Of a stretch of DNA of 64,000 bases, positions 2,865 to 47,295 are shown piece by piece. The notes beneath the pieces are model-generated. The model had not been told where the DNA came from. It worked only from the letters and a program-made list of their open reading frames with translations, and made no database searches. The DNA comes from Bdellovibrionales bacterium (lineage in GTDB: Bacteria > Bdellovibrionota > Bdellovibrionia > Bdellovibrionales > CAYMLA01): NCBI GenBank assembly GCA_965217115.1, contig OZ244239.1:1408001-1472000 (forward strand), written 5' to 3'. The first letter of the stretch is position 1; the number at the start of each line of letters is the position of its first letter. The position numbers were made by a program, and so were the translations under genes.

Positions 2865-2914
2865 CTAGATAAATAATCAGTTCTCAGCCGATAAGGCTAG
2901 GAGATGATGAAAAG
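2865..2914 (+). repeat. 50-bp post-stop hairpin motif (R motif), copy 1
   Basis: CTAGATAAATAATCAGTTCTCAGCCGATAAGGCTAGGAGATGATGAAAAG; homologous copies at 39732, 40718 and 47295(-). Confidence 0.85.
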
Positions 2915-2940
2915 CTCACTGTAAAGTGGGCTTTTTCTTT
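2910..2940 (+). terminator. Intrinsic terminator
   Basis: AAAAGCTCACT-GTAA-AGTGGGCTTTTT followed by CTTT. Confidence 0.75.
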
Positions 2941-3028
2941 GCGCCCCATGATCAGCTTATCATCAATTTACCAGGTTTTAGAACTACCGATGTTTTGGGT
3001 TTTCAAGGATTTTAGAGGTTCAATGAAA

Positions 3029-3104
3029 TGGTAGGGCCTGCCGGAGTCGAACCGACGACATCTACCTTGTAAGGGTAGCGCTCTACCAACTGAGCTAAGG
3101 CCCT
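3029..3104 (-). tRNA. tRNA-Val(TAC)
   Basis: 76-nt cloverleaf AGGGCCTTAGCTCAGTTGGTAGAGCG CTACC-CTTACAA-GGTAG ... GGTTCGACTCC ... AGGCCCT-A-CCA. Confidence 0.97.
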
Positions 3105-3163
3105 AAAAAGAAAGGACAAGTTAACTAGAAAACAACTATTTGTCCAACACAAACCAAGAGAAT

Positions 3164-3715
3164 TTAACTCCACCAGTGGTAGAGCCAATTCCACCAAGAA
3201 CAGCTTGAATCTTCCTCTTCAGATTGAGACTCCTTGTCTTCCACTCGACTTAACAAATAATGATAGCCACAATTTTCTTCACAATCATTATTAATAAAGG
3301 GCAAAAATGTCACTCCCATGCCTTTGTGGCCTTCAAGGCCATCATAATACCGCATAACTAAGCGATAGAGTTGACCATCGTTCTCAACCATCACCGCACG
3401 CACAAGGAAGCCCTCTTCCACCCCTATGCCCGTAGCGACAACTCTGTTGGTTTTGCCATCTATTTCTTCTATTTGTAACTGTTTTAAAAGCTCTGAGGTT
3501 TCAATAACTTTCAATCGAAGAAGTATTTGAGAGCGAGATTCTCCATCGGGGATATCTACTTTCCACACAGTCTCATTAATTGACTTCCAAGGGAATGGAG
3601 CTTCTGTCCCCAGGGGCCAAGGAATTTCTCCCCCATCCGCGCAGGCGCTCAACCCTATCAAGAGACTTATTAGTAATAAGCTCAATCTTTTCAACAATAA
3701 ATACCCCATTAACAT
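3164..3715 (-). CDS. Hypothetical exported protein
   Basis: Signal/lipoprotein-like N-terminus; PWP...PFPW motif; closely follows the upstream TPR gene (start may be ATG 3709). Confidence 0.7.
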   Translation of the reverse strand: MLMGYLLLKRLSLLLISLLIGLSACADGGEIPWPLGTEAPFPWKSINETVWKVDIPDGESRSQILLRLKVIETSELLKQLQIEEIDGKTNRVVATGIGVEEGFLVRAVMVENDGQLYRLVMRYYDGLEGHKGMGVTFLPFINNDCEENCGYHYLLSRVEDKESQSEEEDSSCSWWNWLYHWWS

Positions 3716-3720
3716 CCCCT

Positions 3721-4827
3721 CTAAGCTTCAAACATAACACGAGCATTTTTATTCATGTAATACCCACTCTTTGCTCGGAAAATATATTTTGGTTTTTCAA
3801 AATCAGGCTCAACCATCTTGCGTAGCCTTTTGATGGTCACATAAATCTTATTATCATGAACTGCAGGATCGTATGTCTGCTTCCAAATTTTTTCAACGAG
3901 GCATTCCTTAGAATAAATTTGCCCTGGATTTTTTACAAATAATCGCAGCATATCTAATAAAACAAATTGATTTTTAAAATTAACTCGTCCAAGTCTTTTT
4001 TCAACAATTGAATTTGTTCGTTCATCAAAAACTAAATCATACTGACTCTCGTTAACTGTGCCAATTTCTTTTAATGCTTTTTCTATGTTAGTCAGAGAGC
4101 TTTTTAAATTACTTGGATCGCAAGAGCGACGTGCTAAGTCTAAGTAAGTTCGAGCCATATTCTTGTCGCCCGCTTCAAAATAGGTTAAACCCAGTGCCCA
4201 TAATAAATACACATAGTGCATGAAGTTCTTATCTTCCCGCAACTGATCGTAACACTTCCAAAATATATCTAAGGCCTGGTCGTATCTCTTCATTTGACGT
4301 AAAATATGTCCATTAATCATCTGGGTCGACATTTCAAGTTCAGGTAATTTCAGCACTTGAAAGAAGACTTGAAGGTTATACACTTCATTTAAAGCCTCAT
4401 CGAATCTCCCCAAGTTGTAATAAACGATGGCGATTCCGTTAATCGCATAACAAACATCTTTCTTGCTATCTTCGCTCAAGGCTAAAGATAAAGATTTTTG
4501 TAAATAATCCAAGGCCACTTCATACTGCTGCTTAAAAGAAGCACAAAGCCCAAAGGTGTAATAGGTCTTAGGAGATAGCTGCAACCCCTCTCGAATCACT
4601 AAATCTTGAATTTTTTCTTTGATCTCGTTGATTTCATCAAATTGCTCTCTATCCGCATAGATTCGCAAGGCCTTGTTAATGCACTCTAAATAGTTTGTGA
4701 AATCCTTCTCTTTGAGATATCCCTCAGAGGCTTTGATCAGATTGCGTAGAGCAAGTGAAAAGTCTCCACGATCGCAATACAGGCGACCTAATTCAAATTG
4801 AGATTCAAAATTCTCTGAATGAGCCAA
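3721..4827 (-). CDS. TPR-repeat protein with C-terminal OmpR/PhoB-type winged HTH
   Basis: TPR helices; C-terminal YSKECLVEKIW...IYVTIKRLRKMVEPDFEKPKYI...GYY. Confidence 0.85.
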   Translation of the reverse strand: MAHSENFESQFELGRLYCDRGDFSLALRNLIKASEGYLKEKDFTNYLECINKALRIYADREQFDEINEIKEKIQDLVIREGLQLSPKTYYTFGLCASFKQQYEVALDYLQKSLSLALSEDSKKDVCYAINGIAIVYYNLGRFDEALNEVYNLQVFFQVLKLPELEMSTQMINGHILRQMKRYDQALDIFWKCYDQLREDKNFMHYVYLLWALGLTYFEAGDKNMARTYLDLARRSCDPSNLKSSLTNIEKALKEIGTVNESQYDLVFDERTNSIVEKRLGRVNFKNQFVLLDMLRLFVKNPGQIYSKECLVEKIWKQTYDPAVHDNKIYVTIKRLRKMVEPDFEKPKYIFRAKSGYYMNKNARVMFEA

Positions 4828-5014
4828 CAGAACCCTCTTCCCATAAATTTAAGTGTTTTTACTCACCAATACGGTACTATTTCTTACAAAATTTGACTTT
4901 TTGGTCAACTTCTTAATGCTTTTTTTTAGAATATAGTTAAATTTACATGGAGGCTTTTCTCAGAATCTATATAACAGTTAAGAGATTAACTATAGAGAGA
5001 AGGCCTCCTCAGGT

Positions 5015-7516
5015 CTAATGTCGAATATCCTGATCTTGCTGAGTATGCCCTGTATACCTGGCTCTCAGCCCCTCTGTTCTCTGAGACATGACCTTGAATA
5101 AATCCTTGGCGTCTTTTATCTCTAGAGCATTTACCAAAACTTGATCCACATGGTCCACCAGAATAAATTTTAATTGTTTTCTCACTTCCTCTGGAATGTC
5201 TTTAATATCATCCTTGTTCTCCTTAGGGCAGATGACTGTTCTAATTCCTGCGCGATGGGCAGCCATGGTCTTTTCTTTCAAACCACCTATAGCCATCACT
5301 CGCCCTCGAAGTGAAACCTCTCCAGTCATAGACACCGTTTTTTTAACTGGAAACTTCAGCATTGACGAGACAATACTCGTCACAATTCCAATACCTGCTG
5401 AAGGACCGTCTTTAGGGACGGCTCCCTCTGGTAAATGTATGTGAACATCTATATTCTCGTAAAACTCCTTGTCTAAACCAAACAAAGGCCCGCGAGAACG
5501 GACATAGCTCATCGCCGCCGCACATGACTCCTTCATCACGTCACCTAATTGACCTGTAACAGTGAATTTTCCTTTCCCTGGCACCGTTGAAACCTCAATC
5601 TGTAGGAGCTCTCCGCCCACCTCTGTCCATGCCATGCCATTGGTTAAGCCTATCTCACTCTTGCCTTCAATCTTTCCATGCTTAAGCTTGTGTGGACCCA
5701 ATAACTCGACCACCTTGGCCGCAGTGACATTTATCGATTTTCGAGAAGGTTTCTTTTTCGACGCCTTTGCTCCCTTCTTCTTTAAAGCACTCTTGTTTTC
5801 CTCCAGAGCGTCATTCGTTACGATTTCTTTAACGATCTTACGACAAACTGTCGCCACTTGACGTTCAAGTCCTCGAACTCCAGCCTCTCTGGTGTAAAAA
5901 CGAATCAACTCTTTAATTGCTCCATCAGCAACTGTCACAGTTTTTTTATCCAGACCATGTTTTTTCAATTGTTTCTGTAATAAATATTTTTTAGCTATTT
6001 GGAATTTTTCTGTCTCCGTATATCCTTCCAACGAAATTATTTCCATTCGATCAAGCAACGGCCGAGGAACGTAGTGCAACGAATTTGCTGTGGCTAAAAA
6101 CATCACCTGGGATAAGTCATACTCCAGCTCTAAATAGTGATCCTGGAAATGGCAATTTTGCTCTGGATCAAGAACCTCTAACATCGCCGCAGAAGGATCT
6201 CCTCGAAAGTCATTGCTCATTTTATCAAGTTCATCGAGCAAGATCAGAGGATTGCCTCTCTCGGATTTGCGCAACGCTTGAATAATTTTTCCCGGCATAG
6301 CTCCTACATAGGTTTTTCTATGACCACGAATTTCCGCTTCATCTCGAACTCCTCCAAGGGAAACTCGCGTGAAATCACGTCCCAGGGAACGGGCAATAGA
6401 ACGGGCCAAGGAGGTTTTTCCCACCCCTGGAGGGCCCACAAGACACAAAATAGGACCATTCATGTCATTGGACATCTTCTGCACAGCTAAGTGCTCTAAA
6501 ATCCTCTCTTTAACCTTATCTAGACCGAAATGATCTTCATCCAATATATTCTCAGATGCCACAATATCCACTTTAATATTAGAGTAATCATACCAAGGAA
6601 GAGACAACATCCAATCAATGTAATTACGAACCACTGCCGCCTCAGCACTCATAGGCGACATCATCTTGAGTTTTTTAAGTTCCTTATTAAACTTTTCTTG
6701 CGCCTCTTGACTCCATTTTTTCTTTTTCGCGCTATCTTCCAACTCCTCCAGCTCTACAGCATAGTCATCCTTATCTCCAAGCTCCTTCTGAATCGCTTGT
6801 ATTTGTTCATTGAGATAATACTCTTTTTGGGATTTTTCCATCTGCTTCTTTACGCGACCGCGAATTTTTTTCTCCACTTCGAGAATTTCAATTTCGCCTG
6901 TCATTAAATTCAACAAATATTCTAAGCGATCCATGGAATTAATAATTTCAAGAATTTTTTGTTTATCCTCTAATTTCAGGTTTAACTGAGCTACAATGAT
7001 ATCTGATAATTCACCTGAGTTCTCAATTGAAGACACCCTCATTAAAATCTCAGGGGGAATTCTTTTATTCAGCTTTACATAGGTTTCAAAAGTTGATTTC
7101 ACTGAACGAGCCAAAGCCTGGCTCTCAATTTCATTGATCTTCGGTTCTTCCAAAGTTTCCACTTCAACAGCAAAGAAGACATCCGTTTGAGTGAAGTGTC
7201 TAATCCTCGCCCTTCTTTTACCCTCAATTAAAACTTTTACCGTTCCATCAGGCAATCGGAGTAGTTGTATAATTGTACCAATTGTACCAACTTCATAAAC
7301 ATCTTCAGAGCCAGGGTTATTCGTTTTTGCATTTTTTTGGGCAGCTAAGACGATATCTGTCTGACGAGTCATTGCTTCTTCCAAAGCATTGATACTTTTT
7401 TCTCGTGCAACAAACAAAGGCATCATCATATGAGGAAAAATAATTAAATCCCTCAAAGGTAACAACGGCAAAGTTTCTATAGATGATCCTTCTCTTTGAG
7501 ATTTTGATTCCCCCAT
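5015..7516 (-). CDS. lon: ATP-dependent Lon protease
   Basis: LPLRD N-domain, GPPGVGKTS Walker A, PKDGPSAG catalytic motif. Confidence 0.98.
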
Positions 7517-7760
7517 TTGTGCCCCCCTGTTACAACGGTGCGACAGAGCACCAGTCGAAGACCTTCTCTGGTCTTATTACTAGTAACAATACCGCGAAAT
7601 CACTCTTGGGGAAACGTTTAGTCATAAAACTAGTCTGAAAAGAAGAGGTTAAAGATAAAGAAGGTTTTTCGTATTGCTTAGGGGCTAGGTCAAATGGCAG
7701 TAGGGAATAAGAAATTTATCGACCAAGGTCTTGGAAACCCTAAAATCTCTTATATAAATC

Positions 7761-9643: not shown

Positions 9644-9912
9644 AAAAACTCCTCTTTTTTCAATAAGTTATTTGAGCTACTACTAAATCGTTAAATACCA
9701 ATCGGATTTTTATGAAATGATCTTAAGTGATGTTTTGGTGCGTAAGTTACCAAAATCTGAGAATTATTCCCATAAATCTAAGAAAAGACTACAATCAGTA
9801 CCTTTGTCCTGTTACTACCTATCAGATCTTAACTTTAAGATTTTTTTAACTTATGTCGAAAAGCGGCTCGATTCAAAACCAGAATCGTAAATACTTATAT
9901 ATAGGAGGAAAC

Positions 9913-12124: not shown

Positions 12125-13366
12125 GAAGCTCTGTTGATATTTCTTAAGGGCTGAATCACACTTCTTAGTATCTTGATTTTCAAGAACGCCCATGGACTTA
12201 TCTAAATAACACTTAATTAATTGTTTCCGATTTTGCTCTTTCTCTGAGGAGAGTCCTTTGGTGAGAATATCTAAGGCTTGTGTTATGTTTTTATTGATCT
12301 CTACAGTTGGGAATCGGGCCTTTAAGTTTTTTAAATTTAAATTTGGAGAAGGTTTTGGGTTTTTTAGTTTTTGACTGATGTCATGATGCATTTTTACATA
12401 CCAATAAAGAGCTTCAGGGGCTGCTTTTGAATAGGAGTAATTCTTAATGACTGTTTCTAGGCGCATTCTACAAGCGATGTAGTGATTGGCCGGGTCGGAT
12501 TCTTTAGTAGATAAAGAAGAGAAAAACTCTGATAATGGTTTTTCCTTTGGGTTTGCAACGTTACAGTTAAACATGGCAACAGACAGGTCTCGATTAGCGA
12601 GTTCATTGGAAACGAAAAGAAGTAAAGGATAGACATCTTTTTTATAGAAATCTGTTCCTTCGAAGTCTCTCTCTAAAAGACGAATTATTTCATAAGCGTC
12701 GTCAAGATAGTGAATAGTTCTCTTAACACCTCTGTATTGTTGCAAAGAGTTTTTTACAGAGCCAATAAGAGCATTTGCCGATTTTTTAGGTTCGAATGTA
12801 GAAAAAACCTTGTAATAATGCAAAAGTAATTTGCTGGAGTCCTTAAATGCGCCAATTTTTTGAGCTGATAATGAGGCTTTGAGAAGGGCCTCTTTGTAAA
12901 TATGAGAGGCTTTTTTATTTGATAAAATATTTTCGATCGTAAGATCGTTAGGAAAAATAGCGGCGTTCTCTTCTTCTGAAGAATAATTTAGTATAGTTGT
13001 TTTGTTGATGTTTTTAGAAAAAGGAATTTTGTTAATATTTTTGTGGAATTGTTTTTTAAGCGCCTTGATGGCCTCTACATGATAGTGAATAGCCTGACAG
13101 TGTTTTTTTTGGCTTAACAGAAAGGATTTTTTTTCTTGTTTGTTCAGTATTTCCTGTGCTTGTTTTTGTAGTAAAATACCTTGTTCTAGAAGAAACGAAG
13201 GAATCACTTGAGGAGCTAAATTGTGCGATTCTATGCTGGGATTATCATCTTCACATTCAAAAATTGATTTTAAAGGTTCTATCAGATCAGTTAAGCGAGG
13301 AACTTCCTGACTGTAGGCATTGATTGTACTAGCAAGAATAGTAATAAACGTGATGGATTTTAACAT
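12092..13366 (-). CDS. Secreted protein with a BamD-like TPR region
   Basis: Signal peptide; ELANRDLSVAMF...YIACRMRLETVIKNYSYSKAAPEALYW resembles the BamD C-terminal repeats. Confidence 0.55.
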   Translation of the reverse strand: MLKSITFITILASTINAYSQEVPRLTDLIEPLKSIFECEDDNPSIESHNLAPQVIPSFLLEQGILLQKQAQEILNKQEKKSFLLSQKKHCQAIHYHVEAIKALKKQFHKNINKIPFSKNINKTTILNYSSEEENAAIFPNDLTIENILSNKKASHIYKEALLKASLSAQKIGAFKDSSKLLLHYYKVFSTFEPKKSANALIGSVKNSLQQYRGVKRTIHYLDDAYEIIRLLERDFEGTDFYKKDVYPLLLFVSNELANRDLSVAMFNCNVANPKEKPLSEFFSSLSTKESDPANHYIACRMRLETVIKNYSYSKAAPEALYWYVKMHHDISQKLKNPKPSPNLNLKNLKARFPTVEINKNITQALDILTKGLSSEKEQNRKQLIKCYLDKSMGVLENQDTKKCDSALKKYQQSFSKKFEEFYLD

Positions 13367-13408
13367 GAGAAGGGCTCCTTTTTGTAAAGGGTGATACTAC
13401 AGAGTATA

Positions 13409-13423
13409 GCGAAAATTGTGCCA
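13409..13423 (-). promoter_or_regulatory. sigma54 promoter candidate
   Basis: Minus strand TGGCACAATTTTCGC, GG-N10-GC, about 40 bp upstream of ATG 13366. Confidence 0.6.
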
Positions 13424-13592
13424 ATATCAGCTCTGAATAAAATAGATTTTGATACGCAAGAGGCTGTTCAATTATCAGACAGAACAGCGAGCAGAGAGGA
13501 CACACTCTAAATAGCCAGTATTTCTAATAATTTAAGAGAGTCAATAAAATAGGCTGATTGACAAAATATGTAAGTCAATATTGGAGGGTCTG

Positions 13593-14483
13593 TCAGTCCC
13601 TTTCGCCAAATTTGAGCTTTTCTTTTAAAAGGTCAAAATAATTATGTTTGGGATTTCTGACGATCCAGTGAGGTTGGGAAGTTTTGCGTATGATGATCTG
13701 ATCTCCAGCGCTAAGGTCAGAGATATTTTGTCCATCAATAATAAAACTGGCTTTCTGATTGGTGGGATTTAATGTGATCTCTATTTCCTGTTCATCAGAA
13801 AAAATAAGAGGTCTACTGGTTAAACTATGGGGACATATAGGGGTGAGAACAAAAGCGTCGACTTCAGGATGTAAGATAGGACCTCCAGCTGCTAAATTAT
13901 AGGCAGTGGACCCTGTCGGACTAGCCACAATAACTCCATCGGCTTTAATATCGAGAACAGGACGACGATTGCGACAGACGGCAACGTTGATTAAATGGCT
14001 AGAGGAGCCTCTTTCAATAACAACGTCATTGAGAGCTAAGATTTTTTTTATTTTTCGGTTCTTTTTTTTGAGATTAACTTCCATCATAGAGCGGGCGCGT
14101 AGTTGCATTTTTCCCTTAAGGGTGTCCAGAACAGTTTGATGAAGGTTTTCCACTTTTGTTTGTGTAAGAAACCCTAGGGAGCCTAGGTTGAAACCTAAAA
14201 TAGGAACAGGTCGTCCTTCGAGAAAACGAATGGCTTCTAGATATGTCCCGTCACCACCGAGAACAACTATTAATGTTAACTGTTTGATGTTATTTTTAGT
14301 GACAGGTTTAGAGTGGGGAAGGTTGATCTGTTTAGGTGTATTGAAAATAGTAACATTCTGTTCGTTAAGCCATACACAGAATTCTTTAGCGACTTGTTCA
14401 GCACTAGGAGTGTTCTTGCGATAGATAATAGCGACTTTGGCTTTGTTTAAGCTGATAGCTAGCTTTTTTATCTGAATTCCCAC
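13593..14483 (-). CDS. nadK: NAD kinase
   Basis: GGDGT, G.LGFL, LND, DG...TPTGSTAY..AAGGP. Confidence 0.96.
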   Translation of the reverse strand: MGIQIKKLAISLNKAKVAIIYRKNTPSAEQVAKEFCVWLNEQNVTIFNTPKQINLPHSKPVTKNNIKQLTLIVVLGGDGTYLEAIRFLEGRPVPILGFNLGSLGFLTQTKVENLHQTVLDTLKGKMQLRARSMMEVNLKKKNRKIKKILALNDVVIERGSSSHLINVAVCRNRRPVLDIKADGVIVASPTGSTAYNLAAGGPILHPEVDAFVLTPICPHSLTSRPLIFSDEQEIEITLNPTNQKASFIIDGQNISDLSAGDQIIIRKTSQPHWIVRNPKHNYFDLLKEKLKFGERD

Positions 14484-14492
14484 GGTAGCACC

Positions 14493-16565
14493 TTATAAAC
14501 TTAAAAGCCCTTCTCTTTTTAAGAGAGGCCCTACTTGAGGGTCTCGTCCACGAAACTTGCGATACAGAACATCAGGGGACTCAGTATTGCCCCGTGAAAG
14601 AATATTCTTTTTAAAGTTTTTGGCCGTCTCATGGTTAAAAACACCTTTTTCCTGGAAAAGAGCAAATGCATCTGCATCTAAGACTTCGGCCCATTTATAG
14701 CTATAATAACCAGAGGAGTAACCTCCAGCAAAAATATGGCTAAAACTCACCGAGAAGTTTGTATTTTCGATATAGGGAGTAAGGGTGGTTTTTAGACAGG
14801 TCTCTTTTTCAAATTCAACAACACTTTTAATGTTGGATGGATCTGAGCTGTGCCAAGCCATATCTAAAAAACTAAAATTTAATTGCCTAAGGCCAAAATA
14901 CCCTGCCTGAAACTGTTCTTGAGCTTTGATTTTTTCAATAAGATCGTCAGAGATAAGTTCTCCGGTTTTGTAATGATGGGCGAAGAGTTCAAGAGCTGAT
15001 TTTTCCTTCATCCAGTTTTCCATGATTTGGGATGGAAGTTCCACAAAATCCCAAAGAACATGGTTGCCACTAAGCGAGCAATATTGACACTGAGATAAAA
15101 GTCCATGGATGGCATGACCAAATTCATGGAACAGTGTTGTCGCCTCCTGAAAGGTGATGAGAGAGGGGGTTGTTTCCGTGGGTTTGGTGAAATTACAGAC
15201 AATACTTGCGTGGGGGCGGCGGTCTTTACCAAAAGAAAACCCCTGAGAGCGAAAACCGGTGGCCCAAGCGCCGTTCTGTTTTGTTGGGCGTGGAAAGAAG
15301 TCAGTGTAGAAGAGACCGATGTACTCAGAGGAGCTTTTATCTCTAACTTCGTAAACCTTCACATCCTTATGATAGACGGGGAGATCGGTGACTCTTGTAA
15401 ACGAAAGGTCGTAGAGTTTTTCAGCCACTTGAAAAACTCCATTAAGAACATTTTCTAATTTAAAATAAGGTCTTAGAGTTTCGGAATTAAAGTTAAGCTT
15501 TTTTTCCTGTAATTTATTAGAGTAATAACCAAAGTCCCAGGGGAAAATATCACCATCAGACCCATCTAATTCTTGACGAAATTTTTTAAGTTCATCGAGG
15601 TCCTTTTCGGCGGCAGGCTTATAGGTCTTGTAAAGGTTCTGCAGAAAAGATTGAACGGTTTTTGGATCTTTGGCCATACGCTCTTTAAGAACGAAGTCGG
15701 CATGGCTTTTATAGTCGAGAATTTGAGCCCTTTGGTGACGAAGGTTAACGATTTTCAGAATAATTTCTTGATTGTTGTAGGGGGCAGAAAAGGCGCGGCT
15801 AGAAAAAGCAAACCACATTTTTTTACGTAACTTTTCGTTGTCGATGTATTTCATAAATGGAGTAAAGCTAGGAGACGCAAGAGTGAACAGCCACTTGTTG
15901 CTCTCGCCGTTTTCTTTGGCAGCTAAGGCCGCGGCGTCAATGGCAGAGTCGGGAAGTCCTTTCAAATCTTCTCGGCTATCGATCCATAGTTTAAAATCGT
16001 TTGTCGCCTTAAGAAGATTTTCGGAGTATTTGGGGGCAAGAGCAGAGAGGTCTTTGTCGATTTGACGTATTTTTTCTTTGTCGTCAATGCTCAGTAAAGC
16101 TCCATTTCTAGAAAATGTGTTATATTGATCTTCTAACAAACGTTTTTGTTCCAGATTAAGGTCTAAATCCTTCATTTGATCATAGGCTGTTTTGATTTTT
16201 TTAAAGAGATCAGAGTCTAGAGAGACATCACTAGAAAATTCGGCGAGTTTAGCAGAGATAACGGGGGTCAGTTCTTGGATGTCCTCCGTGGCTTCAGCGT
16301 GATGAAGATTAAAAAACACTCCAGAGATGTAGTCTACTAGATCGGAGCTGGTCTCTAGGGCGAGAACTGTATTGGAAAAGCTGATAGGTTCGGTATTGTT
16401 TTTTATGAGAGCTATCTTTTCTTTAGAATCTGCAATGGAAAATTCAAGGGCGGGTAGGAAATGATCATTTTTAATTTGATCAAACGGCACGGCCTGGTCA
16501 CGAAGATTTGAGAGTTCAATAAGAGGATTGTTTTTTGGTTTTATGATTTTTTCTTTCATGCCCAT
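14493..16565 (-). CDS. M3 family metallopeptidase (peptidyl-dipeptidase Dcp/oligopeptidase A type)
   Basis: FHEFGHAIH, WDFVELPSQ, FSHIFAGGYSSGYYSYKWAEVL. Confidence 0.93.
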   Translation of the reverse strand: MGMKEKIIKPKNNPLIELSNLRDQAVPFDQIKNDHFLPALEFSIADSKEKIALIKNNTEPISFSNTVLALETSSDLVDYISGVFFNLHHAEATEDIQELTPVISAKLAEFSSDVSLDSDLFKKIKTAYDQMKDLDLNLEQKRLLEDQYNTFSRNGALLSIDDKEKIRQIDKDLSALAPKYSENLLKATNDFKLWIDSREDLKGLPDSAIDAAALAAKENGESNKWLFTLASPSFTPFMKYIDNEKLRKKMWFAFSSRAFSAPYNNQEIILKIVNLRHQRAQILDYKSHADFVLKERMAKDPKTVQSFLQNLYKTYKPAAEKDLDELKKFRQELDGSDGDIFPWDFGYYSNKLQEKKLNFNSETLRPYFKLENVLNGVFQVAEKLYDLSFTRVTDLPVYHKDVKVYEVRDKSSSEYIGLFYTDFFPRPTKQNGAWATGFRSQGFSFGKDRRPHASIVCNFTKPTETTPSLITFQEATTLFHEFGHAIHGLLSQCQYCSLSGNHVLWDFVELPSQIMENWMKEKSALELFAHHYKTGELISDDLIEKIKAQEQFQAGYFGLRQLNFSFLDMAWHSSDPSNIKSVVEFEKETCLKTTLTPYIENTNFSVSFSHIFAGGYSSGYYSYKWAEVLDADAFALFQEKGVFNHETAKNFKKNILSRGNTESPDVLYRKFRGRDPQVGPLLKREGLLSL

Positions 16566-31392: not shown

Positions 31393-31393
31393 T

Positions 31394-36846: not shown

Positions 36847-37196
36847 GGGGGCGACACGGCTTCGACGTGGATGTAGAAGCTTGAGGAGCATGCCGGGCAT
36901 GGTACGAGGAGCTCGTAAAAACGTACTACTTTGTAAATTGGCGATAATTTCGCTATGGCTGCTTAAATAGCATCCCAGCAAACCTAGGTAAGGTAGCGTC
37001 CTAGGGGAGCTGTCGACTCAGCTACCTCGACATCTTGAGTGTTTTCTCCAGGCTCGGGTGTTTAAATCTTCTGGGGGAGGGCTGTTGAAACTTTGTCTGT
37101 GGAGGTTCAACAGCTTCTCAAAACACAGACTAAGCATGTAGCTGCCTCAATGTGGAATATTTGCGGACGGGGGTTCAATTCCCCCCGCCTCCACCA
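36847..37196 (+). ncRNA. ssrA: tmRNA; tag peptide (A)GDNFAMAA at 36940-36966
   Basis: GGGGGCG...TTCGAC 5' end; GGTTCAATTCC...CGCCTCCACCA 3' end with G3:U pair; tag ORF ends in AA*. Confidence 0.96.
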
Positions 37197-37383
37197 ATCT
37201 AACCCCGTTCTGCGGGGTCAAGATCGGGATTTTCCCGACAACCTAGTTTCAAGTTATTTCAATCACTTAAGGGGAGTTCAAAGTTCGGCAGGTCGGACTT
37301 TTCTGTATCAATATCACTGTTCATCACAGTTGTTGTCGTCAATCGTCGTCAAGTTGTAGTCAGTGTGATATTAAGGCTCTGTT

Positions 37384-39013: not shown

Positions 39014-39048
39014 TGTTAAATGAAGTCTTAATATGCTAAAGTTCCTTT

Positions 39049-39735
39049 ATGCATAGTTTTATTATTGTTCTAGTTCTCTTATCTATTGGAAAAACAGGGT
39101 TTGCCAATGTTGAACGTTGCGATGGAGGGTTAAAGCTCCCTCTCTTGCAAGTGGGAAAAGAGCTTGCGAGTCTCTCGCATAGTCAATGTCGCAATAGGAA
39201 ACGTCACCCATGCCTGAATAGTAAACCTACTTCAGAATGTAAATTTATCACCCAATTATGGAGTAAATTAAAGCCTAAAATTACCACTAAAGCACAGTGT
39301 TCTGCTTTTGATATTCACGGTAACCCCTGTACTGGATCTTGGGAGGCCAGCTTTATGTGCGCATGTTCTAATGAGCGCACCCATATAAACCCTTCTTTTA
39401 AGTTTCTTTGCGTATCCAACAATCAAAATACCATATGTCGACCAAAAAAAAATATGAATATTAAGACTGTCAAAAATAAGGCCCTAAAGATTTTTAAAAA
39501 TTTAGCTTTTTTTTATAGAGCGGGGGAGCTTGAAAGTGTTACGAGCATTGAAAAAGGACGTAATGGATTAAAGGGAAGTGCTGTTACTACCTTATTTTGT
39601 AATATAAAAATGGTAACATTGGCGAGTGGTATTGAAGATTTGGGCTACGAATGCACTGTTGGTTTAGGTAGTGGTCTTAGGATTACTTTTGATGCCAATT
39701 TAAATCCTCTAAAAATCTTATATTTTGAACCCTAG
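39049..39735 (+). CDS. Secreted Cys-rich hypothetical protein
   Basis: Signal peptide; many Cys; its TAG stop is part of the R motif. Confidence 0.7.
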   Translation: MHSFIIVLVLLSIGKTGFANVERCDGGLKLPLLQVGKELASLSHSQCRNRKRHPCLNSKPTSECKFITQLWSKLKPKITTKAQCSAFDIHGNPCTGSWEASFMCACSNERTHINPSFKFLCVSNNQNTICRPKKNMNIKTVKNKALKIFKNLAFFYRAGELESVTSIEKGRNGLKGSAVTTLFCNIKMVTLASGIEDLGYECTVGLGSGLRITFDANLNPLKILYFEP

Positions 39736-39781
39736 ATAAATGATTAATCCTCAGCCGACAAAGCTGAGAGATGGTGAAAAG
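39732..39781 (+). repeat. R motif, copy 2
   Basis: CTAGATAAATGATTAATCCTCAGCCGACAAAGCTGAGAGATGGTGAAAAG. Confidence 0.85.
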
Positions 39782-39786
39782 GTGAT

Positions 39787-39982
39787 CTAGGGGAGCTATC
39801 GACTCAGCTACCTCGACATCTTGAGTGTTTTCTCCAGGCTCGGGTGTTTAAATCTTCTGGGGGAGGGCTGTTGAAACTTTGTCTGTGGAGGTTCAACAGC
39901 TTCTCAAAACACAGACTAAGCATGTAGCTGCCTCAATGTGGAATATTTGCGGACGGGGGTTCAATTCCCCCCGCCTCCACCA
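39787..39982 (+). repeat. Duplicate of the 3' 196 bp of ssrA (att-like)
   Basis: 195/196 identical to 37001-37196 by eye; lacks the 5' end and the tag. Confidence 0.97.
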
Positions 39983-40254
39983 ATTTAGATAACGGACGAA
40001 CCGCCGCCCACAGGGCTTCCACCTTGTGGTCTTATCCGTACAATCAGCAATAGCTTCAAACTTTCTTGATGGCCGTTCTGTAATGAATTCATACATCGTT
40101 TTGTAATAAGTTCATAAGGTTTCCAAAAAAAAACAAAATTATTTTTTTTAAGTTATAATTCAGTTTTTAAGACAAAGAAAAAACGAGCGCAGCTCGAAAT
40201 TAAAGCATTACAAAAGTGAGCGAATAAGTTTGCTTAATGAACAGGAGAATTAAA

Positions 40255-40713
40255 ATGAAAATATCTATTATGGGATTAATATTCCTGGCTTCAGTGGCAT
40301 CTTTTGCTGCCGAATTTGAAAAGTGTCACGTTAGATGTACGGATTCAAGAAAGAACTTTCAGCACATTAATCATGAGTGTAGAGTTATTGGAGAAAATAA
40401 AGGAATAGAGAAAGGATATATTGGCCTGTCTCTAGAAAGAGAAGGCAGAGGGTCACATAATTCTAATTATTATATGACCAAAATTAAGGATAACAATAGA
40501 GAAGCAGTTATGGTAGGAATTAGAATCTTCAATGCAAAAAAAATCTGTTTTAATATGAGAGAAAAGGTAGTCAAGATGTTGGACGATGCAAAAAATAATG
40601 GCATATGCGACAGTATTGTTACCGAAATTGAAGATGTTGCAAATGCCACTTACATTGGAATGTCTGGTGATTTAGACTCCCTGTCTGAGCCATGTATGCA
40701 TTTAGGAAATTAA
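40255..40713 (+). CDS. Secreted hypothetical protein
   Basis: AGGAG RBS, signal peptide MKISIMGLIFLASVASFA, Cys-containing mature region. Confidence 0.75.
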   Translation: MKISIMGLIFLASVASFAAEFEKCHVRCTDSRKNFQHINHECRVIGENKGIEKGYIGLSLEREGRGSHNSNYYMTKIKDNNREAVMVGIRIFNAKKICFNMREKVVKMLDDAKNNGICDSIVTEIEDVANATYIGMSGDLDSLSEPCMHLGN

Positions 40714-40717
40714 ACTT

Positions 40718-40768
40718 CTAAGTGAATGATCAAGCCCTAGCTGACACAGGCTGGGAGTTGATTATGAG
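40718..40768 (+). repeat. R motif, copy 3 (divergent)
   Basis: CTAAGTGAATGATCAAGCCCTAGCTGACACAGGCTGGGAGTTGATTATGAG, 4 nt after the stop; hairpin retained. Confidence 0.65.
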
Positions 40769-40808
40769 GTTGTAATGAGGTCACAGTAAAATTAGTTTCT
40801 TGTAGCCC

Positions 40809-41051
40809 CGCCAGACGATCTAGTTTATAGACAAGAACTACATCTATTTTTCTGGAGCGGACAAGTTTTAATAATTCGTCAAGGGCTGGTCGCCTTGTAT
40901 TTGCTCCACTATATCCATGATCGAGAAACTCCTGTGTGATGAGCCAACTGCGAGCATCACAAAATTTTCTTAGAGCCTCAACTTGCACTTCGGGTTTTTG
41001 ATCATGGTGAATTGTTGAGACACGAGTATAAATGGCAACTCGTTTCTTAAT
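40809..41051 (-). pseudogene. N-terminal remnant of a serine recombinase (resolvase family)
   Basis: IKKRVAIYTRVST...Q...DHGYSG...RPAL...VYKLDRLA; ATT at the expected start; truncated after LDRL. Confidence 0.88.
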
Positions 41052-41136
41052 CTTGTTCCTTTCCTTCTGAAAAACGTTGTTATCTTTTTTAATTAGGCCT
41101 TGCTTTTTATAAAAAAGAAAGCCTAACGTTTTTCCT

Positions 41137-41823: not shown

Positions 41824-41869
41824 GAGAGATATTGTAAAAAAAACCGTAATAATGGTGATTTTCAGGAGT

Positions 41870-42250
41870 TTATTGATGGCAGGAAAAATATATCTCAGAA
41901 TTATCTAGTTCTAATTTCCCCGTAATAATAGGGTCTGAATTATAATCACACGAACCTCTTCTGCAAAGCTTTGGTTTTTTAACGATTGTTAAAGACCCAC
42001 TGTGATTAAAAAAGTCTACAACTTTTTTAATCATAAGATGTCCACCACTGATCTCTGTTATACCATAATAGGTGCTGGCATCCTCTTCAGATTCAACAGT
42101 GACACGAGTGTGTCCAACGCCGCGAGTCGTATAGTCTTCGTTCATTTTAAGCGAGATTTTTCCATCGTGTGATATGCAAGAGTAATCAGCATGGGCCATT
42201 CCAGTTATGCAGAATGCGAGGGTTAAAATACTAAGTTTAATTGTGTTCAT
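41870..42250 (-). CDS. Small secreted protein
   Basis: ATG 42250 after AGGAG; signal peptide ending AHA; divergent from lysR. Confidence 0.75.
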   Translation of the reverse strand: MNTIKLSILTLAFCITGMAHADYSCISHDGKISLKMNEDYTTRGVGHTRVTVESEEDASTYYGITEISGGHLMIKKVVDFFNHSGSLTIVKKPKLCRRGSCDYNSDPIITGKLELDNSEIYFSCHQ

Positions 42251-42384
42251 AACTTTTCTCCTTTTGTAGATGTTGAACAATCTATTTAGCCGAAAAACTT
42301 TGATCGACTGAAATATTTCTACATTTGAATGATGTTTAAGGGAAATTAATTGATTTAATAGACTTATTAATATATCTAATAGGT

Positions 42385-43251
42385 ATGAGTATTTCATCAA
42401 TTCAGCTTGATGCCTTCCACGAAGTTGCAAAGCTTTTAAATTTTTCCAAAGCAGCTAAATCATTGTGTGTGACTCAATCTGCATTATCCCAAAGAGTTAA
42501 GAACCTTGAACTTGATTTAGGCGTAACTCTATTTATCAGAGAAAGCTCATCCATTAAATTGACTGAGTCAGGTGAGAAACTTCTTCGTTATTGCCTTGTT
42601 AGAAGTTCAATCGAAGGTGATTTACTGGAGGAAATTCAAAGTGATTACCAAAATGGCCTTGATAATCAATACTCGGGCATAATTAGAGTTGCTGCCTACT
42701 CGTCAGTTCTTAGGTCTGTTATAATCCCATCTCTGAGCGAGTTTCTTTTAGATAACCCCAAAGTCCAATGTGAGTTTATTAAAGGTGAGATGGGAGAATT
42801 AACTGAAATGCTCAAAAGTGGTGAAGCTGATATCATTATCCTTGATCATGCCCTAGAGAAATCTGGAGTTGTGCAAGAAACAATTGGATTTGAAGAGTAT
42901 GTCGTTATTGAAAATAGCAGACGAACTGAGCGATCAAACGTTTATTTAGACAATAATCCTGATGATAATGCAACAGAAGCCTTCTTCCAATCTCAAGTCA
43001 AAAAGCCAAAACATTACCGTCGAACATTTATGGGCGATATTTATGGGATATTGGATGGGGTTAAAGCCGGCTTAGGCCGTGCAATTATTTCAAAGCATTT
43101 GGTTCCAAAAACAACCAATATAAAACGAATTAAAGGTTATAGTAAATATGTGATGAATGTAACCATGCATTACTTTGATCAACCATATTATCCAAACCTA
43201 TTTAAAGAAGTAAAATCACAAATTTTACTTAATTCTAAAAAACATCTTTAA
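42385..43251 (+). CDS. LysR family transcriptional regulator
   Basis: LDAF..VA...NFSKAAKSLCVTQSALSQRVKNLE..LG..LF.R. Confidence 0.95.
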   Translation: MSISSIQLDAFHEVAKLLNFSKAAKSLCVTQSALSQRVKNLELDLGVTLFIRESSSIKLTESGEKLLRYCLVRSSIEGDLLEEIQSDYQNGLDNQYSGIIRVAAYSSVLRSVIIPSLSEFLLDNPKVQCEFIKGEMGELTEMLKSGEADIIILDHALEKSGVVQETIGFEEYVVIENSRRTERSNVYLDNNPDDNATEAFFQSQVKKPKHYRRTFMGDIYGILDGVKAGLGRAIISKHLVPKTTNIKRIKGYSKYVMNVTMHYFDQPYYPNLFKEVKSQILLNSKKHL

Positions 43252-43823
43252 TAATCTATTAAAATAATTAATAGGTATGTAAAATCAATTAATTATATTT
43301 TTTAATGATCTCTAGCCTATTTCTACTTGCAAGTGCCATACACCTATTGGTTACACGGTTAATGTGTAACCAATCATGGCTAGGGTCATCATGACAATAA
43401 TACTAGAGTTAATGCCTGTGGAAGGGTTCTGTTCGGCTGACTTCTTTCCACGGTTTTTCCTTTTTTTACTAGAAGTTACACTGTGTTTTTTTGTATATTC
43501 GAATTAGACCACTCTCCACCCCATCAAAGAAGCCCTCAAGAGTGGATGAAATAATCCTTTTTTGTCACCTTCAAAGGACATCAATAAATTACACAACTAT
43601 TCGTATTAATTAGGTTTTTTAGATATTGTCTCTTGATTTGTCTAAAATGGAGACACTATGTATTACTGTAATCTCTCTCAGTTTGATTTGAGAGGGGAAT
43701 AATAATGGCATTGATAATTTGAGTGAAGTTTTGTTCTGATTTTTTGAGGGAAGAATGGGTTGGACCAAGAAAATGGAACGATCTCAAAATACTAGGAAAA
43801 TATTGATTCTATGGAGGCGTTTG

Positions 43824-45908
43824 ATGTTTGCACTTAAGCCAAGACTAAATCTGAAAATGGCTAGTTTTATTTTCGTGCTGGCTTTCTCATTAGTTGGGTG
43901 TGATGGCTTGTTCAAAAAATCAAAGCCTAAAAAGCAGTTATCTTTTCAAAAAATTATTCTTCCAAACGGAAAGAAAGTGCGGGTATCTGAATCTGCCAAA
44001 GTATCTGGACAGGGAGCCAACGTAAATACCTGGCAAGATGGAGTGAAAAAGAGAGCAAGGCAATGTGTTGAATCTATTTGTCAATTACCAGAGTCTTTTC
44101 TCTACGAATTAGAAGATGAATACTATTTTTTGACAGCCAATGAAAAATCAAAGTTGCACTCTTCTGAACGAGTATTTGAGTCAGAAATCTGGCCCAAATT
44201 GGATCAGAGGATATCGGCTGACTATGCCAACAATGAAAAGACATTACAGGAAATCTCAGACCTCGTTGAACGTGTTCCAACAGACAGGGCCATTAAGGTA
44301 GATAGTTTCACAAAGGTACTTATCAAATATGTTTTTGCTATGGATCGTCTGAAAGACTATAAATGGGATACCCATTACGACCAGGAAGAATTTGCTGCGA
44401 CTCAGAGATTAGCTTTAAAACAAAATATATTCAATAAACTTTCGCCAAGCGAACAAGAGGAAGTGGAGGAGGCTCTTATCCTGTATCACAGGACTATTAA
44501 GGGCGACACCTTCAACTCAAATCTTTCTATGATTGAAAACACTGGTCTACGATATTTTTTGCTCTACAACTATGACAGCTCAAGTATTGAAAAATCAAAC
44601 AAGTTGTTCAGACAAGAGATACAACAAAAATTTGACTTAATTAAGCAAACTTCACCACTACTCTATAAGCTCCTCATCAAAAATATTTCTTTGAAAAAAG
44701 TTTTGGATGGTGAGAAGTTGCTGCCAGTGGAAGAAAAAAAGTTAAGTGACGATTTATTTTTTTTATCTTTGTATACTGGCTTTATTACAAATCCCTGGCC
44801 TGAGTTTGAACAAATGGAGTTTAACTTCGATGAATTCCTTAAGGGTTCAGAGATTATTAAGCAACTAAGACAGTACGAGGTTGAAAATTCTGATGAAAGG
44901 CGAGCGCAGAAACATAGAGTCTCTAGAGAGAAAACCCATGGAATTTGTCGGCAAGGTATTAGTGCTTACTTGGCATCACGCCCAAGCCAGGATCAGATTG
45001 TTTTTACCAATGACTTGATTTTAAAAATTAAGACAGCCAGTAAAACTGTGGCAAAAGGCATGTTCCCCTCTGCTACAAAGGCAGATATTGATTCTCTTAT
45101 CAGTGGGATTCGTTTCATTTTACCTGTAGCTTCCAGTAATGCTACAGCCAATCTATTTTCTGAAATAGAGGTATTGTCAGAGATAAGTATCGAAAGTGTT
45201 TTGGACAATTTTGATGAGCTAGGTGAGGAAGAGATTGAGAACTTTCTTGGACTTTTTATCACTACTATCAAAATGAAGGTAGACAAAGATGATGGGGAAT
45301 ATTCACATATATCCGATCTTTGCCTTAACTATTTGCCAAAGACCCTGTCTGATGCATCGGTGACAGTTGACAATGCCATATTTACTTCGGGAACCACTAT
45401 AAAAGCTGGAGAGAGTGGCGCTGGGATCATCGCCCATGAAGTCGCTCACAGACTTTATCGTGACTTAAATGGATCTCCAAACTCTTCTCTTCAGTCATGT
45501 TTAAAGAACAGGCATTTTGAGAGTTTTATCAATGATGGTGGCGTCAATAAAGAAAAGTATCTAAGTGAAGATTTTGCTGACCACTTCTCAAGTCAGGTTT
45601 TGAAACACATGGGACTTACTAGCCCCCAGCACAATTTGGCCTGCCTTTTTTTCAATAATATTAAATTCGAAAAAGAAAATGTCGATGTTCCTTTTTACTT
45701 GAGTAGCACCAAACACCCTTTAATTACTACGGATGATGATGATGAACATTCCTCAGATACTTTTAGGCTATTGCAGGTTAGCTCTGACCTTGGACACCTT
45801 ACCCCAGCTTGTCAGATTTACGCTCAAAATGAAAGTGGCAAAACTTACCCAGAGGCAGATGGTAGCAGTATGGTTACGCCGATGGTTCGCCAATGCACAG
45901 CTGAGTGA
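43824..45908 (+). CDS. Large lipoprotein with a C-terminal HEXXH zinc metallopeptidase-like domain
   Basis: LVGC lipobox; IIAHEVAH ... EDFAD ... EHSSDTFR; start chosen after GGAGG. Confidence 0.65.
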   Translation: MFALKPRLNLKMASFIFVLAFSLVGCDGLFKKSKPKKQLSFQKIILPNGKKVRVSESAKVSGQGANVNTWQDGVKKRARQCVESICQLPESFLYELEDEYYFLTANEKSKLHSSERVFESEIWPKLDQRISADYANNEKTLQEISDLVERVPTDRAIKVDSFTKVLIKYVFAMDRLKDYKWDTHYDQEEFAATQRLALKQNIFNKLSPSEQEEVEEALILYHRTIKGDTFNSNLSMIENTGLRYFLLYNYDSSSIEKSNKLFRQEIQQKFDLIKQTSPLLYKLLIKNISLKKVLDGEKLLPVEEKKLSDDLFFLSLYTGFITNPWPEFEQMEFNFDEFLKGSEIIKQLRQYEVENSDERRAQKHRVSREKTHGICRQGISAYLASRPSQDQIVFTNDLILKIKTASKTVAKGMFPSATKADIDSLISGIRFILPVASSNATANLFSEIEVLSEISIESVLDNFDELGEEEIENFLGLFITTIKMKVDKDDGEYSHISDLCLNYLPKTLSDASVTVDNAIFTSGTTIKAGESGAGIIAHEVAHRLYRDLNGSPNSSLQSCLKNRHFESFINDGGVNKEKYLSEDFADHFSSQVLKHMGLTSPQHNLACLFFNNIKFEKENVDVPFYLSSTKHPLITTDDDDEHSSDTFRLLQVSSDLGHLTPACQIYAQNESGKTYPEADGSSMVTPMVRQCTAE

Positions 45909-46062
45909 GCCTTTCGACAGCAATATTGCAAATTATCAAAAACCACAGGGCTGAGTTTACTTAGATTATTTCTTGTTACTGAGTTTCATTGTAATTCTCT
46001 CATAAAATAACAATAAAAACTCTAAAACGGAGAGAGGCTAAGAAAAAAATCTAATAGATCTG

Positions 46063-46536
46063 TTAAAAATCTGTCTCAATAATAAAAACAGTGGAGAGTT
46101 TTTTTAAAGTAATCGGGCCTTTGTGCCAACTTTCTATTTCAGGGAGATACATGCCATCTGTATTTTTTGCTAAATCATTAACTGTTATTAATTCACTATA
46201 GAAGTTCTTTGAAAACAATAAATACACAAGATGAGATTTTTTATCAGAGATTTCTAAAAAATCATAAAAGGATTTTCCTGGAGCTATTTGCTTTTCTGTT
46301 TTATTCCTTAAATCAAACAAACAAACGGCCTCTAGTATAGAGCCGACACTCTCATGTGAGTGCAACGATGTGGTTTTCAAATTTTGAGTAGAGCTAGGAA
46401 GAATAGCGCCTTTAGATTTTATTGATAAATATTTCTCCATAGAAGTAAAATGAAAGACTTGATTTTTTATTTTTGGGTAAAAAGTCTCTTCCATCTCTTC
46501 TCTTGATTTAATGGATAGATGAACTTCCTTTGGCAT
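46063..46536 (-). CDS. Hypothetical protein, possible ADP-ribosyltransferase-like fold
   Basis: VFHFTS...SIKSKGAILP and PEIESW..GPI motifs. Confidence 0.55.
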   Translation of the reverse strand: MPKEVHLSIKSREEMEETFYPKIKNQVFHFTSMEKYLSIKSKGAILPSSTQNLKTTSLHSHESVGSILEAVCLFDLRNKTEKQIAPGKSFYDFLEISDKKSHLVYLLFSKNFYSELITVNDLAKNTDGMYLPEIESWHKGPITLKKLSTVFIIETDF

Positions 46537-46685
46537 ACTTGTAAACCTTCTTATTTTAACACTTGATTTAAAAAAACCTAAAGCCTTCTCTAGAGGGGCT
46601 TTTTTATCATTAAATTTTCATTGCCTTTGCGTGTAAGGCTTAGATACAAATCTAGGGTTCTAGAGTGAGTTTAATTTTACTTTTT

Positions 46686-47051
46686 CTATTGGTAGAACAT
46701 TTGACAGTCGTCGAGCATATCTACTTCTTCAGGGAGTTTTAGGTCTCCTTTTTCAAAACTGTATTTCATTTCACACTTAAAAGGAGAGTGATGAAAGCAG
46801 GCGTGGATGTCTTTCCCTTGGTAGATATCCAGATAGACGGTTTGTTTTTTTAAGTCGATACTTGAAATAGAAAAGCGAGGCTCACCACAGTCTTCACCGT
46901 CATCCCCGTACCAAAAATCATCTAATATATTATTAGAGCCCTTAATTATCTCATTTATTTTTTCCTCAAAACCCTCAGAATTAGATTGAACATCGGCACT
47001 TACAGCGATGGTTAAAACACAAGAGATTATAAATAAACAGGCCTTTCTCAT
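46686..47051 (-). CDS. Small secreted acidic protein
   Basis: GAGGA RBS, signal peptide, four mature-region Cys. Confidence 0.75.
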   Translation of the reverse strand: MRKACLFIISCVLTIAVSADVQSNSEGFEEKINEIIKGSNNILDDFWYGDDGEDCGEPRFSISSIDLKKQTVYLDIYQGKDIHACFHHSPFKCEMKYSFEKGDLKLPEEVDMLDDCQMFYQ

Positions 47052-47081
47052 GATACTTCCTCATTTATTACTCATCTGAGC

Positions 47082-47250
47082 AATGGTTTATTTGTTCGAT
47101 TCCTTTAAAATTCCTGTGCGACTATAATCGACTTTAGGCATGAAAAGGGAAAAATCTGTGGGGAGTGTAATTTTTACCGGTTTTGAGATCTTGCTTTTAA
47201 AAGCGAACCTCTCGAACCCAAAGAAAAAGACGACTCGAAGGTCGTCTTTT
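47082..47250 (-). repeat. 169-bp direct repeat, copy 1 (terminator plus L motif)
   Basis: About 4 mismatches versus 47641-47809; includes AAAAAGACGAC-TCGAAG-GTCGTCTTTT. Confidence 0.96.
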
Positions 47251-47295
47251 CATCTTCTTCTAGTCTTGTCGGCTAAGGAATGATTATTTATCTAG
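47246..47295 (-). repeat. R motif, copy 4
   Basis: Minus strand CTAGATAAATAATCATTCCTTAGCCGACAAGACTAGAAGAAGATGAAAAG, 8 nt after the 47304 stop. Confidence 0.85.

Follow-up and report, generated by a model that had tools for sequence, protein, structure and literature searches.

A motif of about 50 bp that directly follows the stop codons of small orphan genes was analyzed in a 64,000-nucleotide stretch of a Bdellovibrionales genome (the window; genome positions 1408001-1472000 of the single contig, 2.17 Mb, 39.6% GC, rated 99.4% complete). We give about even credence to the view that the motif is the head of a lineage-specific modular gene-end/gene-start element, which spreads and is reshuffled by homologous recombination. 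In this arrangement, a promoter module upstream and a gene-end module downstream appear to package unrelated AT-rich, mostly secreted orphan genes as self-contained units, which sit in accessory islets, several of them on the 3' side of tRNA genes or of ssrA. For brevity, we refer to the 50-bp head as L1, to the terminator as T, to the middle stretch as M, and to the promoter/5'-leader module as R.

The four hairpin copies named in the original prediction were all located in the sequence, and they belong to a family that extends far beyond the window. A hidden Markov model profile built from 7 copies and searched against the genome with nhmmer gave 22 matches at E<0.01 and 25 at E<0.1 (7 of the matches are seeds). 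The original prediction had proposed a covariance model; the one built here from 14 genomic copies found 31 places at E<0.01 (14 of them seeds), far beyond chance, and 42 places when the limit was E<=1. The top score was 93 bits. The 50-bp head is present in about 26 places, and the remaining low-scoring model matches cover the terminator part only; the L1-bearing copies number 24 in the stop-codon count and 26 in the counts of attC core sites and tRNA distances given below. The exact 15-nt start of the head, CTAGATAAATRATYA, occurs at 2865(+), 39732(+) and 47295(-), and with 3 mismatches at 40718(+). Allowing up to 3 mismatches, CTAGATAAATRATYA was found 19 times versus 13.2 expected, which is not above chance, so that the weight rests on the exact matches and the model scores only. 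Module copies occupy about 14 loci and are found on either strand. Identity between distant copies is only about 77%, which argues against a recent burst of the family, and the motifs look maintained. One copy of the family (42.5 bits, filters off) and one 21-bit match lie at 596-599 kb of the genome.

The conserved unit is longer than the roughly 50 bp first proposed, the motif being the head of a modular junction. In the alignments, the order from 5' to 3' is stops, palindrome, terminator and, in many copies, middle part and promoter module. L1 positions 2-12 read TAG-A-TAA-A-TAA and place stop codons in all three frames, four bases apart. All three stops are kept in 16 of the 24 L1-bearing copies and two are kept in 4 more, with TGA, TAG and TAA as replacements; by our own tally, 12 variant copies are stop-preserving and 8 are stop-destroying. 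The element's own stops are used by 6 of the 16 upstream open reading frames (ORFs, at least 60 aa), with all three registers represented, and the other 10 end 7-35 nt upstream of the element. We regard the three-frame stop as a probable design feature, with selection on it not claimed as proven.

Behind the stops, L1 contains an imperfect palindrome (positions 12-44, loop GAYAA), in which sequence is conserved rather than structure. Six of twelve copies fold far better than shuffled sequences (z -2.7 to -4.65) and the other six do not (z above -2), including the high-scoring copies at 47295 and at genome position 2078958. Among 20 copies, 76.4% of cells pair, versus 74.5% in shuffles and 29-42% with partners slid. 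Neither pairing nor covariation is convincingly above shuffles (the observed values are reached by 23 and 33 of 500, and that for compensated pairs by 338 of 500), and an alternative pairing register was no better. Within the window, three of the four copies form a stable hairpin and copy 4 is the exception (-2.8 kcal/mol, z -0.17). Identity across L1 is 78% per column. Conservation is stronger in the 5' strand and in the loop (C18, C19, G23, C25, G26, A27 and A29) than in the positions with which they pair.

The terminator T (positions 45-75) lies directly beside the first hairpin, between an A-tract and a T-tract. Here pairing is maintained: 92.8% of cells pair, and 4 of 9 pairs are compensated (GCGAC/GTCGC versus GCCAC/GTGGC). 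A terminator pattern scan reported sites on both strands, including 47251-47224 and 47810-47783, and the folds agree; the terminator of copy 1 was missed by the scan, yet it folds. With a stem-loop, a T-run and maintained pairing, T is predicted to be an intrinsic (Rho-independent) terminator. As had been noted before, two window copies (1 and 4) lead into a terminator hairpin, which ends in TTTTTCTTTG. A small ORF running from an ATG or GTG past the palindrome through the terminator was considered and rejected: the frame is interrupted by a stop codon in copies with a CTGTAAAG loop, and changes on the two sides of the stem compensate each other. As a separate observation, 17 nt before the terminator at genome positions 1575452-1575468 are 82% complementary to the TTTACATCAT region behind it (1575543-1575559); such pairing would enclose the terminator, and the complementarity is not conserved in copy 4.

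The module R is a 69-nt promoter/leader sequence of the form TATAAT...GGAATTCAAAACGAATCGAATAAATAAACCATT, with 23 nhmmer matches at E<0.1. Most R matches lead into a ribosome-binding site and an ORF with a signal-peptide-like start. From our own reading of the map, L is followed by R on the same strand at 10 junctions, and at least 7 single-gene units have the order R-gene-L. L1, T, M and R are also found in separate combinations.

Placement behind genes is strongly non-random. A same-strand ORF of at least 60 aa ends between -35 and +12 nt from the element start for 22 of 35 model matches, versus 5.3% at random positions (P about 8e-20). In the window, the distance from stop codon to motif is 6 nt for copy 1, 4 nt for copy 3 and 8 nt for copy 4, whereas copy 2 overlaps its gene (TAG inside CTAG); all four copies are oriented like their upstream gene, in agreement with what had been described. 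The covariance model finds five window places at E<=1, namely the four known copies and a partial copy at 47775-47828(-). The five are confined to the flank of tRNA-Val and the interval from ssrA to the ABC-F gene, consistent with the two regions reported, and the model found none in the rest of the window. Genome-wide, 7 of 26 copies have a tRNA gene within 2.5 kb, and in every case the copy is on the 3' side of that gene.

The genes in front of the module have little in common. The upstream ORFs are mutually unrelated except for one homologous pair among 16, and a Pfam family above the cut-off was found in 1 of 15 (an AHSA1 domain) and in none of the other 14. The four upstream window genes are small orphans as previously stated, with no Pfam family above the cut-off and no mutual homology. 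By inspection rather than by a predictor, 13 of 16 upstream ORFs have a hydrophobic signal-like start. Their mean GC content is 35.9%, versus 40.0% for long ORFs.

The 5' edge of the motif is sharp, right after the stop codons, and one near-identical pair of copies (39732 and genome position 1570408) stands behind unrelated genes. Relatives were represented by 60 genomes of the same order from 13 families, with one genome from the same family. The 198-aa gene in front of copy 1 has patchy homologues in 3 of these 60, and for the 228-aa gene in front of copy 2 no homologue was found in any of the 60 with this query. In three other genera, the homologues of the 198-aa gene share the same C-terminus and have unrelated 3' flanks (at most 6.5 bits, filters off), so that the module was joined to the gene in the present lineage. 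From these comparisons, the motif is not ancestral to the genes that it follows. Of the two readings originally offered, a portable 3' untranslated region element is close to this evidence, given the unrelated 3' flanks in homologues and the sharp 5' edge, and the cassette site is not.

The module is lineage-specific, and was found in this genome only among those searched. In the 60 relatives, only model matches of 26-34 bits were obtained (0-4 per genome, in 27 of 60), and the three best alignments, taken from the six top-scoring loci, delete the palindrome and represent plain terminators. The L-M-R module as a DNA query gave 21 matches in this genome and no real match in 25 relatives. Exact-pattern scans of public genome and metagenome collections returned 13 and 15 isolated matches in unrelated taxa, with own-genome records possibly excluded; scored with the model, these reach at most 16.4 bits, and all fail as family members. 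The proposed Rfam check gave no family at the gathering threshold at the window copies (on 7 loci, sub-threshold matches at chance level, the best 27.8 bits versus 40). A literature search found no account of such elements; absence from print is not claimed.

Several repeats associated with the module are read as signs of recombination. The segment 47641-47809 is a 169-nt direct repeat, 98% identical, of 47082-47250, and both are made of T, M and R. The repeats flank the single-copy 110-aa gene (47636-47304), and the unique stretch between them consists of leader, gene and L1. In one run (X4), a contig of depth 4.6 joins 47209 to 47770 and is without exactly the 560-bp unit of the 110-aa gene. 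This joint may represent a strain without the unit or an assembly collapse of the repeat, and we treat it as a hint only. A contig of run X2 (depth 4.4) joins 39999 to 41128, skipping 1128 bases with the copy 3 gene and the resolvase fragment; its shorter side is only 30 letters, too weak to use. Tandem paralogues, each with a module, are present at genome positions 2167-2170 kb and 1572 kb. In addition, a 1.58-kb duplication, 95.8% identical (genome positions 13322-14894 and 1590151-1591725), ends at the outer edge of R. At 1591.7 kb, R faces a gene-end module in inverted orientation.

Together, these features suggest how the module may work. In cis, the three-frame stops would end translation whatever the frame of an incoming ORF, T would end transcription in both directions and leave a double-hairpin 3' end, and R would restart transcription for the next gene. 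Dispersed similar modules would serve as sites for homologous recombination and gene conversion, by which whole units could be duplicated, inserted or deleted without a dedicated recombinase.

Some observations weigh against this reading. Homologous recombination between existing modules leaves unexplained both how the head was first placed within a few bases of unrelated stop codons and why its 5' edge at CTAG is so sharp, as in the 39732/1570408 pair. L1 is found without a terminator at 39732 and at genome positions 913846, 915837, 2140413 and 780202, which would fit an independently moving or recombining unit. The most conserved L1 bases suggest a sequence-specific recognition that the reading leaves unnamed. 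Transition bias and shared ancestry could account for the stop-preserving changes, which therefore do not prove selection on the stops. That T terminates, that R is active as a promoter and that the module may affect mRNA stability are predictions from sequence alone. Finally, the X4 contig has low depth and spans a repeat, and run X4 was made from the sample that also gave the three other runs.

Among the alternatives, we consider it rather unlikely that the motif is a non-autonomous mobile element, similar to miniature inverted-repeat transposable elements or repetitive extragenic palindromic (REP) sequences, that inserts at or behind gene ends and brings its own stops, terminator and outward promoter. 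In favor are the dispersal of the family, its sharp 5' edge and its portability with respect to genes. With stops in all three frames, an insertion into the last codons of a gene would do no harm, and 6 of 16 ORFs do end in the element's stops. Another dispersed repeat (about 340 bp, 88-94% identity) indicates that something transposes in this genome. On the other hand, both full modules that were examined have internal inverted repeats only and no terminal ones, and no target-site duplication was seen by an inspection of flanks that was not exhaustive. Distant copies about 77% identical do not indicate a recent burst, L1, T, M and R combine separately rather than as one unit, and the orientation is always that of the upstream gene. 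Potential enzymes are also scarce: Y1 (PF01797), the RAYT type, and DDE_Tnp_1 have no match in the genome, and there is only one rve-type gene. The mobile-DNA enzymes found in the genome are 3 tyrosine recombinases (605, 743 and 1679 kb), 1 truncated serine recombinase, 1 rve-type transposase (1562 kb) and 1 reverse transcriptase.

The original prediction had favored an attC-like site of a cassette system. Integron cassettes, for example those with the repeats of the Vibrio cholerae superintegron, are small, mostly unknown accessory genes, each with an imperfect palindrome after the stop codon. The present units resemble them in having small accessory genes and an imperfect palindrome right after the stop, in the orientation of the gene. 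They differ in that there is no IntI, that R''/R' core sites are absent, that sequence rather than structure is conserved, and that each unit has its own promoter and terminator, at about 14 loci instead of in one array behind attI/Pc. No integron integrase was found in the genome (best TIGR02249 score 64.4 bits versus a cut-off of 265), and a RYYYAAC...GTTRRRY pair within -30 to +130 nt was found in 0 of 26 copies, versus 0.34% of random windows, as the reported absence of attC core sites had implied. The attC reading is not supported, because there is no integrase and there are no core sites, because structure is not better conserved than sequence, and because the units have their own promoters and are dispersed.

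A broader version, in which the palindrome is an attC-like or Xer/dif-module-like recombination site at the 3' end of each cassette, worked by an unrecognized or a host recombinase, seems doubtful to us. Such a site would fit the layout, in which an imperfect palindrome oriented like the gene follows its stop codon. In the repeat-flanked 110-aa unit, L1 belongs to the unique stretch and so stays with the gene, and elsewhere L1 lies beside other junction sequences (the ssrA fragment and an island at 913-918 kb). The most divergent copy keeps a strong hairpin, and a truncated resolvase abuts copy 3. Most stem mismatches are transition-type, and pairing is slightly better on the bottom strand (32 A-C versus 20 G-U cells), a difference that is not statistically significant and that rests on non-independent cells. 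RNA folding makes the antisense strand more stable in 13 of 20 copies, whereas in DNA folding the strands are alike, and single-stranded DNA folds are weak on both strands (mean -4.1 kcal/mol). Besides the missing integrase and core sites, covariation not above shuffles and the six of twelve copies that fold no better than shuffles speak against a recombination site. No 'empty' junction leading from R to L was found in the genome. Linkage to a recombinase family, one of the originally suggested checks, was not borne out either, as none is consistently near module copies or linked to their clusters. The statement that the window lacks an intact recombinase stands with one correction, a truncated serine recombinase at about 40737-41039(-) beside copy 3.

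Head placement and core recognition, both unexplained by homologous recombination between modules, leave some room for a recombination-site role, small as we judge it, as do the cassette-like layout and the possible presence or absence of one unit between strains. In the most far-reaching form, which we would likewise expect to fail, this predator-like bacterium would have a non-integron cassette system. Its standard slot, with R upstream and three-frame stops, palindrome and terminator downstream, would capture foreign ORFs in any frame and express them as secreted proteins, with L1 as the joining site, worked by a host recombinase or RecA. If true, this would be an independent invention of the integron idea.

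It is very unlikely, in our estimate, that L1 is a sigma-28 (FliA)-type promoter, TAAAT-N13-CCGAYAA (equivalently TAAA-N13-GCCGAYAA), that yields either a tiny RNA of about 40 nt, ended by the terminator, or a leader of the next gene that is subject to attenuation. A -10 element of the GCCGAYAA type is the Escherichia coli sigma-28 consensus, and the matching bases G23-A30 are among the most conserved in L1. The pattern TAAAT-N13-CCGAYA is present in 11 copies, and the genome encodes a FliA/WhiG sigma factor at genome positions 981686-982360(-) (264.8 bits, cut-off 189.6). Passages of one study give TTAAG-N16-CCGATA as the Bdellovibrio FliA consensus and have FliA controlling the attack-phase programme (PMC3627812); measured against the consensus in these passages, the L1 spacer is 2-3 bp shorter. 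It is also shorter than that of the genome's own candidates, TAAAG-N15/16-CCGAYA, of which there are 11, with 5 located no more than 60 nt upstream of an ORF. While the -10 element of L1 matches, its spacing is thus not the N15-16 of such promoters. The divergent copy 3 has CTGA for CCGA and yet keeps stops and hairpin, conservation continues through the would-be spacer, and the tight link to upstream stop codons would be unexplained. Candidate sigma-28 promoters lie just upstream of ORFs near genome positions 1594195(+), 1913588(-), 1553090(-), 1121536(-) and 783013(-). A flagellin domain was not found in this 99.4%-complete genome, and sigma-28 may serve a non-flagellar programme here.

Returning to the modular gene-end/gene-start element, other known systems share parts of its anatomy. 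REP/BIME, ERIC and Neisseria Correia elements are short interspersed repeats with regulatory content. Like them, the module is a short, dispersed, lineage-restricted gene-end repeat that would be co-transcribed, forms hairpins and may carry terminators or promoters. It differs in the absence of terminal inverted repeats and of a RAYT/Y1 enzyme, in having only about 26-35 copies, in the built-in three-frame stop, in the strict same-strand position within about 35 nt of stops, and in its restriction to orphan secreted-protein genes. Phage morons are self-contained promoter-gene-terminator units inserted in mobile DNA. Shared features are an autonomous promoter, one gene and an intrinsic terminator, atypical composition, and a location in integrated or accessory DNA near tRNA genes; here, in contrast, the flanks are one conserved repeat family common to unrelated genes, and no prophage context is visible.

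A further comparison is offered by promoter-coupled intrinsic terminators, for which parts of a recent preprint describe a -10 element that immediately follows the T-tract and a distance of about 10 bp between termination and start sites (bioRxiv 10.64898/2026.08.19.745784, Fletcher et al.). The same parts raise the idea that hairpin-encoding palindromes may double as protein-binding sites. As far as described there, the likeness is a terminator and the next promoter in one junction, bidirectional and with an A-tract and a T-tract. Here, by contrast, TATAAT lies about 50-110 nt downstream, and the junction recurs as a portable module.

About two dozen mutually unrelated orphan genes, most of them with predicted secretion, have a common promoter module and a common three-frame-stop/terminator module. 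If the modules act as proposed, this would be a route by which a small genome gives newly acquired or fast-turning-over genes ready expression signals, while also creating recombination handles for gene gain and loss. The module would mark a candidate co-regulated secretome in a probable bacterial predator, and its three-frame stop, bidirectional terminator and promoter would be available as compact natural parts. The finding would carry much more weight if the palindrome turned out to be a recombination site.

Coordinates of the module copies and their neighboring genes in the window are collected in the table.

Table. Module copies, their parts and adjacent genes, in window coordinates (z, folding energy relative to shuffled sequences).
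Feature	Position	Strand	Evidence or remark
Copy 1	2865..2944	+	93.1 bits; hairpin z -3.21
Copy 1, three-frame stops	TAG 2866-2868, TAA 2870-2872, TAA 2874-2876	+	sequence
Copy 1, imperfect palindrome/hairpin, loop GATAA	2876-2908	+	folding
Copy 1, predicted terminator hairpin and T-run	2909-2936	+	two adjacent hairpins -28.3 kcal/mol, z -3.62
198-aa ORF, signal-peptide-like start, no Pfam family; stop 6 nt before copy 1	2262..2858	+	
tRNA-Val	3029..3104	-	copy 1 sits 85 nt past its 3' end, the side where islands integrate
Copy 2, three-frame stops and palindrome only	39732..39786	+	53.8 bits; z -2.77
228-aa Cys-rich ORF, signal-peptide-like start, no Pfam family; upstream of copy 2	39049..39735	+	
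Copy of ssrA 3' part, 201 nt, 99% identical to 37001-37201	39787..39987	+	abuts copy 2
Copy 3, divergent	40718..40805	+	25.9 bits; z -4.65
158-aa ORF, signal-peptide-like start, no Pfam family; stop 4 nt before copy 3	40237..40713	+	
Truncated serine recombinase, Resolvase N-terminal domain (profile positions 1-76 of 145)	~40737..41039	-	profile match
Copy 4, three-frame stops, barely folding palindrome, predicted terminator (stem 47251-47224)	47216..47295	-	88.6 bits; z -0.17
M and R after copy 4, before the 121-aa gene; R = 47150-47082, TATAGT...AAATAAACCATT	47082..47215	-	E 1e-16
110-aa ORF, likely start ATG 47621	47304..47636	-	DUF2846 match sub-threshold only
Fifth, partial copy: T, M and R, no stop/palindrome head	47641..47828	-	30.5 bits
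121-aa ORF, signal-peptide-like start, no Pfam family; downstream of the R of copy 4 (predicted driver)	46686..47051	-	

The individual copies differ in what is left of the module. In copy 2, where the TAG in CTAG is the gene's stop, the duplicated 3' segment of ssrA cuts the module short ahead of its terminator. The intact ssrA (36847-37196) and this duplicate bracket an islet of 2786 bp with three orphan ORFs and no integrase inside. The tmRNA at 36847-37196 is found by Rfam (156.6 bits) and missed by ARAGORN. Copy 3 keeps all three stops as other codons (TAA, TGA and TGA), and its hairpin is the most stable of the twelve folded (-19.9 kcal/mol), whereas its terminator is decayed. The truncated recombinase, which is the genome's only serine recombinase match, abuts copy 3 and is fused to the decayed terminator. 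The 110-aa ORF forms a complete unit, with R upstream and copy 4 downstream.

The largest cluster of the family lies outside the window at genome positions 1560000-1597000, with 16 module matches in 26 kb and many small ORFs with signal peptides. It also contains four paralogues of 174-179 aa that start with MKFLSIV, the rve-type transposase gene (1562 kb) and an apparent C-terminal integrase fragment (1564.3 kb). Separate from the module family, a dispersed repeat of about 230-375 bp (88-94% identity) is present at genome positions 370639-371011 and in about 20 other places. One copy of it lies directly behind the module at 371107, and it looks like a recently active miniature mobile element.

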